Positions 4,461-50,145 of a DNA stretch of 64,000 nucleotides are shown here, piece after piece. The notes under the pieces were generated by a model that was not told the DNA's origin, did no database searches, and was given only the letters and a program-made list of their open reading frames with translations. Numbering within the stretch: the stretch's first letter is position 1; every line of letters begins with the position of its first letter. A program made the position numbers and the translations under genes. This stretch comes from Eledone cirrhosa (taxonomy: Eukaryota). Where the stretch lies: NCBI GenBank assembly GCA_964016885.1, contig OZ024742.1:107632001-107696000 (forward strand), in the 5' to 3' direction.

Positions 4461-4570
4461 TCCCCAACTCCTGGTGGAGTCGTAGTTGTGCCGTCATGTC
4501 ACACGGCGAGTGCTGGACATTCTAAACCTGTTGGAACCTATCTTGCCCCAGGTCTGAACACAGCCGATTT
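4461..4570 (-). other. Conserved three-hairpin repeat 5' motif, copy A
   Basis: ATCGGCTGTGTTC-AGACCTG..CAGGTTT..GCCGT(8-nt loop)ACGGC..GACTCC-acca-GGAGTT; homologues at 16552-16657 and 50027-50145. Confidence 0.6.
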
Positions 4571-5351
4571 CTTTTACAGAAAAAGAGAGAGAAAGAGAGA
4601 GAGAGAGAGAAGTGTGTGTGAGAGAGTGAGGGGGAGAAGGAGAGAGAGTTAAGAGAGAGAGAGAGAGAGGGAGAGAGAGAATAGCGAGCGAATGAGAGAG
4701 AGGATGGGGAGAAAATTGACTCCAGTACAACACTGGTACTTTATTTATCGACGCCGAAATGATGTAAGGCAAATTTGACCTCGACGGAATTTGAGTGCAG
4801 TGAAACAGAATGTACTTGAATTATAATAAGTCGACTCCAGTAAAAGTCTAAGGTATTTGTTGGAGAGAGAATGTGGATTTGTCCAGAAACATATTCAATT
4901 TAGATAATTTTGGCAAATATATAATTGAAAGCAAGTAGGAAGAGAGTAAAAGCGAAGATATGCTTCGATTTCAATCGATAAAATCTGAGTAGAAGAAAAA
5001 TATGGAAGATCCTGGCGTGTACACACTGGAATTACAAAACATGCCATAGAACTATTGATTTACCGAACTATTATTATAGTTACTACAGGCAAACAGATGT
5101 ATTTATACATATAAGCATCTGCGTATGTGTCTATATATTAATAAATGTGTACACAGACACACACACAAGCGCGCGCCCACGCACACACACACATGCTTGT
5201 ACACACACATACACATGCTTACACACACACTCACACTCACACATGGCAGTACAACAATATTGCCGCAGTGAAAGAACTATGTGAATTCAGTAGAAGAGAA
5301 ACGAGTATGTATATTGCCAATGACAGAATATGCGTATATGTGTATATATGA

Positions 5352-5535
5352 TTGTTTCTACTTTAGGCACAAGGCCAGCAATTACCCCAGTGCATTACTG
5401 GTGCTTTATTTTATCGAACCCGAAAGGATGAAAGACAAAGTTAAATTCGGTGGGATTTGAACCCATAACGTAAAGGGCCATAACTCTATGTTGCAGAGCA
5501 TGGTGTCTGACGCTTTACCAATACTGCCAATCCAA
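5352..5535 (-). mobile_element. tRNA-derived SINE with Nin/Deu-like central domain
   Basis: A box tggcagtattgg, B box gggttcaaatcc, central tttcatcctttcgggttcgataaaataaag; many copies in window (also ~4712-4800, 16697-16855, 41400-41578, 49810-49965, 55905-56090, 60010-60118, 60555-60715). Confidence 0.8.
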
Positions 5536-5604
5536 TACTGGTACGTAGTACTGAATATTAATTTTGAATGTGTGAGTTTGAATGTGTGGTAAATGTATAA
5601 TATA

Positions 5605-6100
5605 TACAAGGTTTGTCCTCAAAGTAAGGGCATTGATGTTTTATTTAAATGTATAATTGACGTACATGAAATTATAAGTCCTTTAAAATACGGCCTTTGT
5701 GATGTCACATGTAACAGTACTGGAAGTCATTTTTTGTGAATGTCTTTAGCTCGTCGGTTACAATTTTTTGTATGTTTTCTATGTTCCAAAATGATGACCC
5801 TTCAACTTCAATTTCAACTTAGGTAAGAGGTAGAAACCACACGGAGTTCATTGGTTGACGAAACTGGCCTTCCAAAACGACGTTCGTCTTCAAAATATTT
5901 TCGGCCTCCTTTGAAAGCTTTGTGCCACTTACAAACCTTACTTCTCGGTAGAATGGCATCTCTTTAAGCTTGTGTTAAATAATTAAATGTTTTGGCGGTA
6001 AATTTTTTGAGTTTCACGCAAAATTTTATCACGTATGTCCGATATTTTCCTACATCGCAAATGTAACAGATGTTGTAAATACGTCTGTACATAAACATCT
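5605..6100 (-). mobile_element. Internally deleted mariner (Tc1/mariner) transposon
   Basis: Minus strand reads VIKFCVKLKK...WHKAFKGGRKYFEDERRFGRP (N-terminal HTH) joined to PCGFYLLPKLKLKLKGHHF (C-terminus); TIR-like tacaaggtttgtcctcaaag at ~5605. Confidence 0.75.
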
Positions 6101-6852
6101 GTACACACACACACACACACACACACACACACACACACACACACACACACACACACACACACACACACACACACACACATATATATATATATATGTATAT
6201 ATATATATATATATGGTAAATGTATATATCTATATATATATTCAAAATACAGACACGCACACACATATGTTCAAAAAACACCAGTATTGGTGCATCACAT
6301 TAAACTTTAACGACGATCTCTCCACTAGTAAAGATTCTATAAGCATTTGCAAAAGACAAAGAAGGTATTTTCGACATTTTCTACTAAATCATTGCAAAAT
6401 GTTACGAGTTAAACAGATCAGAACACAACAGGAAACAAACAAACATGTGTGCAATGAATGAACAATAACTACTTTCACTTTGTATAAAAAAAATTTACAT
6501 TGTAAACAGAGAACAATAGCAACAACACCCTGTAGCTTACGTCCTTCAAATATAGATATTTAATGAATATTCACATAATTTCGTACAAAAGTTGAAAGCG
6601 ATCAATCAAGTCTATTTTAACCTGACGATCATAAATATTGCTTCATACAATGAGAAATATTGATTAATGTCATCTTTGTAATTAAAATAACTTGTGTCCG
6701 GGATATTAGCCACAATCAATCATTCACTATTTACATATATATACCAGCGACCTGAGGCCATTTTGAAGATACAGAAGAAAAAACCCACATGAACATATAT
6801 ATATATATATATATATATATATATATATATATATATATATATATATATACAT

Positions 6853-46936: not shown

Positions 46937-47809
46937 CTTTTTTTGTTTAATATAAGGAACTGTTTCATTGTTTTATTCATTATTTTTTTAATATTTTATC
47001 TTGACTCTGTATTCCGTTTATCTTTCACCGAAAGTGATTTTTCATTGCATCTCTTCTTTCCATGATATCCGGATTACATTGAGTTCTTCATACGGATTGG
47101 ACACTACCGTAAACTCTTGGTAGATTTATCTACATGTATGTTTATATATATATATATGTTTATACACACACACACACACACACACACACACACACACACA
47201 CACACACACACACACACATATATATATATATAATATATATATATATATATATATATATATATATATATATATATAAAAACAAATGACGAAACGAAATTAA
47301 ATTTCGTTTCGTTTGTAACTCACTTTTGTATGACTGACGCTTTTTTTAACTTAATTATATATATATATATATATATATATATATATATATATATATATAA
47401 AAACGAAATAGGTTATCAGATTCTTGTGGAATCATGTTAGCCATGAAAGGTATTTTTCTTACGAAAGCTCAACGACGCAGTCACTGATAAGTAGAAATAT
47501 GTTCAAAGAAGAGGAAAACAAAATTAAAAACAATCTGTTATAGTTTTAAAGATAATCAAACGATTTGGATGTTTAATGTTGTAAGAAAGCTGTGATCTTT
47601 CATCCGGAACATTTACTATGTAATGTAGGTTTAATAGACTAACCAACATATCTCAGACGTGTGGTTTGCACCAACATTATTAGCCTTTCATTACAATATT
47701 TCTGATGATAGACACTGTGTATGATTTCGTATTTATTTTGAAAATAATCTAGAATTTAGAGAAATGTAATGCAACTAACTTTCTCAATATTAAAATGGTG
47801 TTTATGTTC

Positions 47810-48110
47810 TTCGTAACCAACTTAGTCGCCTCGGCCATAAGCTCCGGTAAGGCCGCTCGCAGTGCAGAGAACAGGAAGATAAGCAAATACCAGAGCTTAT
47901 TCAGTCGCTTCCTCTTTGCACTGGTCGCCGTCGAAACCTCAGGCGTCCTAGGACCCCGGACAGCTGACCTCCTCCGTAAAATCGGATCGATAACACCCGT
48001 CTGAGGAAGGAGCACCGCGAGGTGTGGTGGATGCTGCAACGTGTGTCGCTGGCCATTGTCCGTGGAAATACCTTTGCCTTTTAGTCCACAGGGCGCAGCC
48101 GAAACACCGC
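47810..48110 (+). mobile_element. CRE-clade retrotransposon C-terminal fragment
   Basis: AARSAENRKISKYQSL..AVETSGVLGPRT..LQRVSLAIVRGN. Confidence 0.75.
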
Positions 48111-48604
48111 TCTGTCCGAGGTGTAGAGTCTCTCACTATCTCCCCTTCCCCTTTTCTTTCTTCCTTTGTCTAGTAGTCCTTGCTCTTTCCCTCCTATTCC
48201 TTTCAATTATGGTATTTATAATCCTTTACAATACTGCTCTCTTTTTATGTATGTTTATATAACCCCACTACGACATATATCTAATTCAGAAACTCATATA
48301 CATATAGAACACCTTATACAAAATCACCGACAGGTAGATCCCAGTAAATAATCCTAAACAAGAAAACGACTTTTACTTGGTCCTGGAAACTGCAGTAAAG
48401 AGAACGTAGAGAAGCCTTTTAGTTATAGGTTTCTTACTAAGATTCTACACTTAGTGTAAGATGCTTTTGAAGCTTCCTTGATTAAAAAACATTTACTAGG
48501 ATCTACCGTTCTGTAAATCATATGCTCACCTGTAGCCAGACTACTATCATCGGGTTCCAAACTATGGCGAGCATATAAAAAACAAAAAATATTACACCTT
48601 AATA

Positions 48605-48675
48605 CCTGTCTGATGACACCACATCAAATGATTATCATGCAATCACTTAGATGTCTTTGAAATGCGCACAACAGG
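48605..48675 (+). ncRNA. HHR motif with mutated cleavage triplet
   Basis: CCTGT CTGATGA caccACATC..GATGTcttt GAAA TGCGCA CA ACAGG; same stem III as 26763 motif, U16.1 changed to C. Confidence 0.65.
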
Positions 48676-50026
48676 ATTATGTAATAAACAGAAGATGCAT
48701 ATATAAAACCGTCTCTATTCTTTATAACATTGACACTCCGTGTGATACCTTATAGGTAATATATTAAGATACCCACATCGTGGAGTGCATATGTCTGTTT
48801 ACACTACAGTCGGTCGATTAATTGATCAACCAACGTTTCTTTATTTGGAATAATATATATATATATATATATACACATATATATACACACACATATCTCT
48901 CTCTCTCTCTCTCTCTCTCTCTCTCTCTCTCTCTCTCTCTCTCTCTCTCTCTCTCTCTATATATATATATATATATATATATATATATATATATATATAT
49001 ATATATATATATATATATATATATGTATAAAGAATTAGTATATCTGCTAACATATATATACAGATGCATACCTATGAAATTTTAGTAAGTAAGTTAATTT
49101 TTATAATTTTCTTATTTTACGTCTCTCATATATATGTATGTATATAGTTACTGGATTTGACAAGGTATGAGAATAACAAATGCATGTGTGTGAGCTGTAT
49201 GTGTATGGGTAAGGTTTTATGTAACTTTGTGAGCGTGTGTGTGTGTGTTTCTGTGTATGGATAAGGTTGTGGGAAATTCTTTGCATGTATAAGTGTGTGG
49301 TTTGTATATATGATTTATGTGTTTATCGCAAGCGTGTGATTCCAGTCACTGATAGACACACACACACACACACACAACTACCATTACCATTAGGTATTTA
49401 GTTTGACAGTAAGTTCCAACTCTAATATAGTGATGTTAATAGAGTGAAGCAACATATACACATTCCTAGGGGGGAAAAAACAAAACATGAAGTTTTGCGT
49501 CAAGTTCGAAAACAGTAAACAGATATAAAGTAAAATACCAATAAAGTAATATAAAATAAAAATAAAAATTTAAACTGAATAGAAAGGTGATCGATAGCTT
49601 GTTCGCCTTCTTAACGTGAATATGGATGAAATGATAAAATTGATACGACCCCCCCAAAAACAAACAAACAAAACAAAACACCACCACCACCACCACAACC
49701 ACCACCACAGGGAATGTGTCGGAATAAATAGAATAGAAAACGTGATCCGAAACATTGAAAATAACATTTAGGGGAAAAAATATATAAAACTGATTGTCAC
49801 CCTTGAATGAGGCGGTGAATTGGCAGAGTTGTTAGAACGTTGGATAGAATGGTTTGCAGTATCCATTCGGACTCTCTGCCTTCTGAGTTCAAATCCCGCC
49901 GAGGTCAACTTTGTCTTTCATCCATTCAAGGTCGATAAAAAAGTACCTACCAGTACTCGAGTCGATTCTTTCTCTATATCTCTTTCTTACTTTCTTTCTC
50001 TCACACCCTATCCTTCTTTGGAAGAA

Positions 50027-50145
50027 ATCTGCTGTATTCAGACCTGAAGAGGTGCTGGGTTTCGCCAGGTTTAACCCCCACCCACCCCGAGAAACACCGT
50101 ATGTTAATATGGTGCCCCTACAACTCCCTCAGGAGTTATGGGTCC
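50027..50145 (+). other. Conserved three-hairpin repeat 5' motif, copy C
   Basis: ATCTGCTGTATTC-AGACCTG..CAGGTTT..CACCGT(8-nt loop)ATGGTG..AACTCC-ctca-GGAGTT. Confidence 0.6.

Follow-up and report, generated by a model that had tools for sequence, protein, structure and literature searches.

A three-hairpin RNA motif (hairpins A, B, and C) recurs in a stretch of 64,000 nucleotides (nt) of the Eledone cirrhosa genome (contig OZ024742.1, positions 107,632,001 to 107,696,000; the window). The motif is the 3′ third of one high-copy, noncoding short interspersed element (SINE) of ~340 nt, and target-site duplications surround the whole unit. By homology, its front portion (hairpin A with the 5′ arm of helix B) traces to the leader of a long interspersed element (LINE), probably of the RTE clade, and the remainder (hairpin C with the 3′ arm of helix B) to an RTE 3′ end. 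Taken as a whole, we consider it likely that the middle hairpin of this composite SINE preserves a helix joining the two ends of the RTE transcript and that the RTE protein reads it.

SINE anatomy and the two RTE-derived pieces

An earlier note on the window had described three motif copies, each as a separate structure behind a truncated SINE and a CT- or CTAT-rich tract. The coordinates, strands, and hairpins that it gave were accurate, with folding z scores of −2.0 to −2.3 against shuffles on the sense strand (the opposite strand of copy 3 folds equally well, at −2.1), but a fourth copy was missed. Rather than forming three separate parts, all four copies are collinear with one 340-nt element (77 to 86% identity over aligned columns), copies 2 and 3 at full length, and copy 3 is identical to the family majority at 286 of 334 aligned columns. 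The copies, with the parts of copy 3, are as follows.

4457..4808, minus strand: SINE copy 1, 5′-truncated; motif at 4462 to 4573
16552..16852, minus strand: SINE copy 2, full length, decayed; motif at 16552 to 16657
49811..50157, plus strand: SINE copy 3, full length, with head, middle, pyrimidine segment, RTE 5′ piece, RTE 3′ piece, and short repeat tail
49811..49899, plus strand: RNA polymerase III (Pol III)-type head, seen in the sequence; A-box-like at ~49821 to 49832, B-box-like at 49885 to 49896
49900..49968, plus strand: conserved middle domain, common to a second SINE family in the window
49969..50020, plus strand: internal pyrimidine-rich segment (the "CT tract")
50021..50103, plus strand: RTE 5′-leader-derived piece (by leader homology), with hairpin A at 50040 to 50072 and the helix B 5′ arm at 50095 to 50101
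50104..50147, plus strand: RTE 3′-end-derived piece (by 3′-end homology), with the helix B 3′ arm (to 50114) and terminal hairpin C at 50116 to 50142
50144..50155, plus strand: short degenerate repeat tail of copy 3
55551..55890, minus strand: SINE copy 4, 5′-truncated, hairpin B deleted (profile match); motif at 55556 to 55657

Thirty genome loci and the window copies align as a single element from head to repeat tail, in the order A/B-box-like head, conserved middle, pyrimidine-rich segment, three hairpins, and short repeat tail, the last being (CATA)n, (CCATA)n, or (TTATCC)n across the family. Copies were gathered by pattern and profile searches. Across the 3.0-Gb genome, the hairpin A pattern is matched exactly at 1240 places and its reversed control at 0, and the copy number is roughly 10^5 (extrapolated from 12 matches within 342,520 bases of unrelated loci). 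Body and tail are linked, as 162 of 175 tail matches have a head/middle match just upstream, the remaining 13 being truncated or tandem copies, and a pattern for the middle/pyrimidine junction has 2412 exact matches, with 82 of 91 such sites running on into a recognizable tail. The earlier note had named the tail of a known composite SINE as the outcome that would speak against it, and a composite SINE's tail is what was found: the extreme-3′-end pattern has 100 matches, and by inspection 30 of 30 fetched loci carry the SINE body upstream. Exact direct repeats of at least 9 nt bracket the unit from head to tail in 18 of 96 full-length copies, compared with 1.0 (maximum of 4) for mismatched pairs.

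The head was recognized by motifs resembling the A-box and B-box consensus sequences, and neither ARAGORN nor Rfam made a tRNA call in it; Pol III would be expected to transcribe the SINE from this head. The pyrimidine-rich segment has grown into a microsatellite in copies 1, 2, and 4. Since this CT/CTAT tract is a conserved internal segment and prone to slippage, it is not the insertion target that it had been taken for. Among 177 near-complete tails, 92, 56, and 21 belong to three subfamilies, diverged by 14%, 8%, and 9%, respectively, at non-CpG sites, and the third ("short") subfamily lacks both the pyrimidine segment and five bases of the hairpin B loop. The middle domain looks by eye like the 3′ half only of CORE domains in supplementary Fig. 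S1 of PMC5804259.

A second, younger SINE family has the same head and middle and a different tail ending in (ATT)n. It lies in the window at 5343 to 5534, 14942 to 15875, 41305 to 41578, 59996 to 60119, and 60558 to 60717, and its (ATT)n tail was present in 77 of 299 head/middle matches among the loci examined; tail exchange between the two families falls at the end of the middle domain. Parts of the first SINE (the hairpin A unit, the hairpin C unit, and the head) are also amplified as short tandem arrays (L210, L197/L198, and L024).

A bipartite RTE origin was tested because PMC5786205 describes SINEs composed of a tRNA head, a CORE domain, an internal piece of the RTE 5′ untranslated region (UTR), and an RTE 3′ end. 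Extension of 20 LINE copies 5 kb upstream gave no colinear 5′ end; RTE leaders were obtained by an endonuclease search. A profile of hairpins A and B matches 5 of 30 endonuclease loci of the same genome (E values of 5e-12 to 2e-4), ~200 to 300 nt upstream of the endonuclease domain, a second match in L348 being a neighboring SINE copy, and it matches the leaders of RTE relatives on metagenome contigs at 7 of 75 loci (E < 0.03). The SINE 5′ piece and L397 are identical at 60 of 70 positions. This piece ends where an ATG stands in RTE leaders, so that the leader match stops at the ATG in the middle of hairpin B and the 3′-end match starts there.

Across 19 RTE leaders, 93 of 114 cells of the hairpin A stem are paired, with C-G/T-A and G-C/A-T exchanges; shuffles have a mean of 75.9 and a maximum of 90 among 20000, and slid registers give 40 to 53, although the relatedness of the leaders inflates this statistic. 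Pairs were counted from two motif anchors because MAFFT misregistered hairpin A across leaders, and of the 23 leaders that matched, the count uses 19 and sets aside 4, which are additional copies of one family of this genome; 3 other leaders were unmatched. A separate candidate, hairpin A as a relic of LINE C-terminal coding sequence, was rejected as not significant (101 to 344 of 1000 shuffles were as good). In several copies of the related RTE family (L335 to L340 and L346; e.g., G000:C1:271913047, C3:72184802, and C4:83105616), the 5′ part runs in the opposite direction to the 3′ part, and some of these copies appear to have a common breakpoint. In L440, a distant RTE relative on a metagenome contig, positions 123 to 199, at the 5′ end of the element, match twister-P1 (E value of 1.5e-8, below the gathering score) just 5′ of the hairpin A position and outside the piece that the SINE kept, and twister-like motifs were seen by eye in RTE elements L424, L428, L429, L432, L436 to L439, and L448, also on metagenome contigs.

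For the 3′ piece, a LINE end was first reached by a variant pattern, which found two degraded LINE ends after three fruitless searches. The top 30 PF00078 loci all belonged to a single CR1-like family, which has an (ATT)n tail and whose 3′ end does not match the SINE tail. Two other RTE-type families made up the top 30 PF20049 loci, without a profile match at their 3′ ends, and tail-anchored patterns returned SINE copies only, with no LINE partner. Thirty LINE relatives were then gathered with upstream open reading frame (ORF) DNA alone, and the SINE profile matches the exact LINE 3′ end (last ~45 nt) at 22 of the 30 loci, or 21 of 29 without the query locus, with E values of 7e-4 to 4.2. SINE and LINE 3′ ends are identical at 31 of 43 positions (0 of 2000 shuffles as good), and a sister LINE family with the same 3′ end is identical at 27 of 34 (3 of 2000 as good). 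RVT_1 lies upstream of the matched LINE 3′ end, and full-length homologues have single ORFs of ~1010 to 1057 amino acids (aa) with endonuclease and reverse transcriptase (RT), plus DUF6451 in some relatives. A single endonuclease-RT ORF of ~1000 aa is the architecture of the RTE clade, and the donor LINE is tentatively assigned to this clade by its domain architecture. Loci L121 to L150 hold many near-identical copies of a young LINE family that is CR1-like, with open frames of 945 aa and a tail of (ATT)n.

The SINE and two LINE families agree in several features of hairpin C, namely a C-G base of 3 bp, a G-U pair, and a small internal loop. Its upper stem differs with pairing kept, being T-A in 88 of 101 SINE copies versus C-G in 18 of 26 family A copies at one pair and A-T in the SINE versus G-C in 12 of 19 family B copies at another.

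Helix B as a predicted pairing between RTE ends

The arms of hairpin B come from opposite ends of a 3-kb RTE element. In full-length RTEs, the leader arm, at the ATG, and the 3′ arm are complementary with family-specific sequences, including in three families of this genome. L403 has a predicted leader/3′ helix of 7 + 6 bp with the same arms as the SINE, the helix is 11 bp long in L399 and L432 and 10 bp in L453 (which we take to be BovB-like), and a C-G pair in L428 corresponds to T-A in L439.

In an anchored test, a 45-nt leader window was placed on an independent downstream motif and a 36-nt 3′ window was fixed from the ORF end, which allowed 26 of 34 elements, in 16 nonredundant families, to be scored. 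Cognate duplexes have a mean of −17.8 kcal/mol versus −12.8 kcal/mol for noncognate duplexes (permutation p = 2e-5, unchanged when 13 families are used), whereas windows shifted up or down give p values of 0.65 and 0.63. Counted in Watson-Crick pairs, the longest helix has 7.25 in cognate versus 5.19 in noncognate combinations (p = 2e-5). The helix lies at the same place, with differing sequences, in 23 of the 26 anchored elements, and the two ends of L399 cofold into the A/B/C layout. The three-helix fold is conserved and covarying, as the earlier note had claimed, when RTE families, not SINE copies, are compared. A young RTE family outside the statistics (L460 to L462 and L464) lacks the anchor motif, but by eye 6 nt of a leader stretch that contains an ATG match its 3′ end.

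The compensatory changes in hairpin B among the three copies first noted are, in contrast, mostly mirrored CpG decay. In the majority stem B, CpG faces CpG, and CG>TG on one arm with CG>CA on the other consequently looks compensatory. In 82 of 91 independently ascertained copies, each stem B CpG is kept in just 20 to 35 copies, and double changes at the three CpG-touching pairs number 9, 11, and 11 versus 7.3, 10.0, and 7.4 expected under independence. A "compensatory" pair appears in 44% of random triples with arms artificially unlinked and in 61% of real triples. Doubly decayed CpG couples have the compensating combination in 26 of 52 (p = 0.47) and 25 of 38 (p = 0.018) cases, and the pooled value (51 versus 42.8 expected; p = 0.052) leaves room for a small true excess, which may exist. 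Non-CpG compensations within subfamilies number 3 versus 1.8 and 5 versus 3.7. One hairpin A pair does covary among SINE copies (A-T to G-C; p = 4e-7), as a single subfamily event and one of four clear diagnostics, three of which fall in stems with pairing kept. Inserted copies would decay mainly neutrally, with decay at CpG sites mimicking covariation, and the case cautions against taking CpG decay in the stems of old repeat copies for covariation.

Proposed mechanism and alternative explanations

The RTE ends are complementary and change together and therefore likely pair into one RNA handle. The RTE transcript would bring its own ends together as a three-helix element recognized by its protein. 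SINE RNA transcribed from the Pol III head would take up the A/B/C fold and so imitate the ends of a folded RTE transcript, and the RTE endonuclease/RT could bind this handle and insert the SINE by target-primed reverse transcription, a mobilization in trans suggested by the shared ends. The bipartite ancestor may have arisen when an internal deletion spanned the loop that helix B closes, and this minimal bipartite template would then have gained the Pol III head and middle domain and been amplified. More tentatively, RTE-clade LINEs from marine invertebrates to BovB-like elements might all circularize their RNA by a conserved, covarying helix between start codon and 3′ end, which with hairpins A and C would form a recognition element required for retrotransposition, the SINE being its natural minimal version; we see this general model as possible, with slightly more doubt than belief. 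If true, pairing of RTE ends would explain why RTE parasites are bipartite and keep an internal 5′ UTR piece, and it predicts that RTE template recognition needs both ends. For mechanistic studies of RTE/BovB retrotransposons, it also delimits a minimal cis element of ~120 nt.

Several observations weigh against an end-to-end helix inherited from an RTE donor. The clade was assigned from domain architecture rather than from a tree that includes named references; the partner searches found no LINE with the SINE's own tail repeat, and the two closest LINE families end in (GAT)n and (GATGA/GATAA)n. Eight of the 34 elements could not be anchored, the predicted duplex of three anchored elements (L424, L441, and L457) is by inspection without the helix, and the full A/B/C layout appeared in one of four cofolds, that of L399 alone. 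An unanchored duplex test (330 by 80 nt, 20 families) was not significant (p = 0.07), the anchored windows were picked after the helix had been noticed, and the p values overstate independence because the families are related.

The complementarity could also be read as a translational switch of the LINE, in which the 3′ end occludes the start codon and the bipartite SINE kept the helix as a by-product of deletion. The leader arm ends at or overlaps the ATG in most anchored elements, and the P0001 sequence has a methionine at the place matching the leader ATG, but this ATG is only putatively the true start, and a switch would be useless to a noncoding SINE, yet the subfamily majority sequences retain stem B and the short subfamily drops just its loop bases; we regard such a switch as unlikely. 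Rather less likely again is that a real complementarity has no selected recognition role and only promotes template jumps across the closed loop, giving rise to internally deleted elements. This would suit the SINE junction, which falls within the extended LINE helix, right after the ATG, but the family-specific covariation persists in autonomous elements and therefore points to selection in the LINE itself. Even less credible is a plain composite SINE with hairpin C as the one part that counts, chance and post hoc choice of windows having produced the leader/3′ complementarity. The nonsignificant unanchored test, the CpG decay behind most within-SINE covariation, and the stems' being barely more conserved than the loops among copies (0.86 versus 0.83) all accord with chance, which would not readily produce an advantage of cognate over noncognate pairs that shifted windows lack, or a helix at one place in 23 of 26 anchored elements with differing sequences.

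The original suggestion, that the motif is a promoter or a new self-cleaving RNA and heads the 5′ end of a Tx1 element targeted to CT/CTAT repeats, is very improbable. It was correct in that a retroelement's 5′ leader supplied hairpin A and half of B, the donor being RTE rather than Tx1, and it gains something from the twister-P1 match directly upstream of the equivalent module in L440 and from the HDV-like ribozymes that PMC5786205 cites in some RTE leaders. However, the motif sits at the 3′ end of a composite SINE, with a repeat tail and a target-site duplication behind it, the CT tract lies inside the unit, and ~1.4 kb of unrelated sequence separates copy 3 from the Tx1-like ORF. Rfam has no matching ribozyme family: there were 0 gathering matches in the window and 0 in 10 RTE loci, and E-value mode gave nothing meaningful on the element in 7 well-preserved copies (ARAGORN likewise gave 0). 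In a scan of 221 copies for ribozyme core motifs, the hammerhead core order occurred in 9 and 8 copies and the twister and pistol motifs in 0. The composite SINE with an RTE-derived middle helix remains the preferred reading.

Neighboring repeats and known systems

Other repeats in the window are LINEs and Penelope-like elements. A 5′-truncated, frameshifted L1/Tx1-like LINE (51500 to 53420, plus strand; recognized by eye, with no Pfam match) ends directly in (TCTA)n and is unrelated to the motif. A near-full-length endonuclease-RT LINE with frameshifts and a Cys/His-rich C-terminal part (56400 to 60022, minus strand; Pfam Exo_endo_phos and RVT_1) has a 3′ end unlike the motif. The region from 27900 to 36300 is a tandem duplication of ~4 kb (98.5%) with 609-aa Penelope-like ORFs (by eye; no Pfam match), and long (AT)n arrays there enclose partial copies in inverted orientation. 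Additional fragments of Penelope-like type lie at 9787 to 10672, 23362 to 24914, and 44412 to 46134.

Among octopus SINEs, OK, OR1, and OR2 have been described, OR1 and OR2 as CORE-SINEs (PMC4824008, PMC5804259); tRNA-Core is listed as a main octopus SINE class (PMC8967140), and RTE-BovB expansions have been reported (PMC8967140, PMC13282606). By description, the present SINE probably resembles OK, OR1, and OR2 in head/middle type. Repeat libraries probably hold so abundant a family, and it may already have been named; four of its sequence motifs occurred in no full text searched.

Stringent LINE 3′ stem-loops common to partner SINEs are known for CR1-14_CGi/BivaCORE-SINE1 (PMC4824008), Au-like SINEs of plants share a 3′ stem-loop with RTE-1_STu (PMC6007223), and terminal SINE/LINE hairpins are also described in PMC3747384. 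Hairpin C is of this kind, with compensatory changes between LINE and SINE, but those structures, as described there, involve the 3′ end only, whereas two of the three helices here need LINE 5′-leader sequence. Structured RNA in an RTE leader is likewise known from Perere-3, an RTE element with a twister at its 5′ end (PMC8501958). The twister-like match in L440 just 5′ of the hairpin A position recalls this arrangement; the SINE motif differs in having no twister core and corresponds to the module downstream of it.

Bipartite RTE-derived SINEs with a tRNA head and CORE include WALLSI2 and Mar-1, and further bipartite RTE SINEs are Bov-tA, AfroSINE, Ped-1/2, Ceph-SINEs, and hagfish SINE1-1_EBu (PMC5786205, PMC7245038). 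Like the WALLSI2/Mar-1 type, the present SINE has a Pol III-type head, a conserved middle, an RTE 3′ end, and a microsatellite tail, and its RTE 5′ UTR piece is internal rather than the extreme 5′ end; unlike that type, it has an extra pyrimidine segment. The available text of the two papers gives no pairing between the two RTE pieces, and pairing of RTE 5′ and 3′ ends was not described in the literature searched, which included PMC5786205, PMC7245038, PMC6007223, PMC13295347, and PMC8501958 in part, with older Bov-A/Bov-B SINE papers and several supplements beyond its scope. Kojima (2018; PMC5786205) noted that internally deleted derivatives arise "for unknown reasons" and speculated about binding of a transcriptional regulator to the conserved domain of the 5′ UTR. 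An end-to-end helix offers a testable answer to the questions why it is RTE, in contrast to most LINE clades, that gives rise to bipartite derivatives and what keeps a domain in the middle of the 5′ UTR conserved. As far as the sources cited go, the architecture of the SINE is already known, and the proposed RTE end-to-end helix is what the present analysis adds to it.

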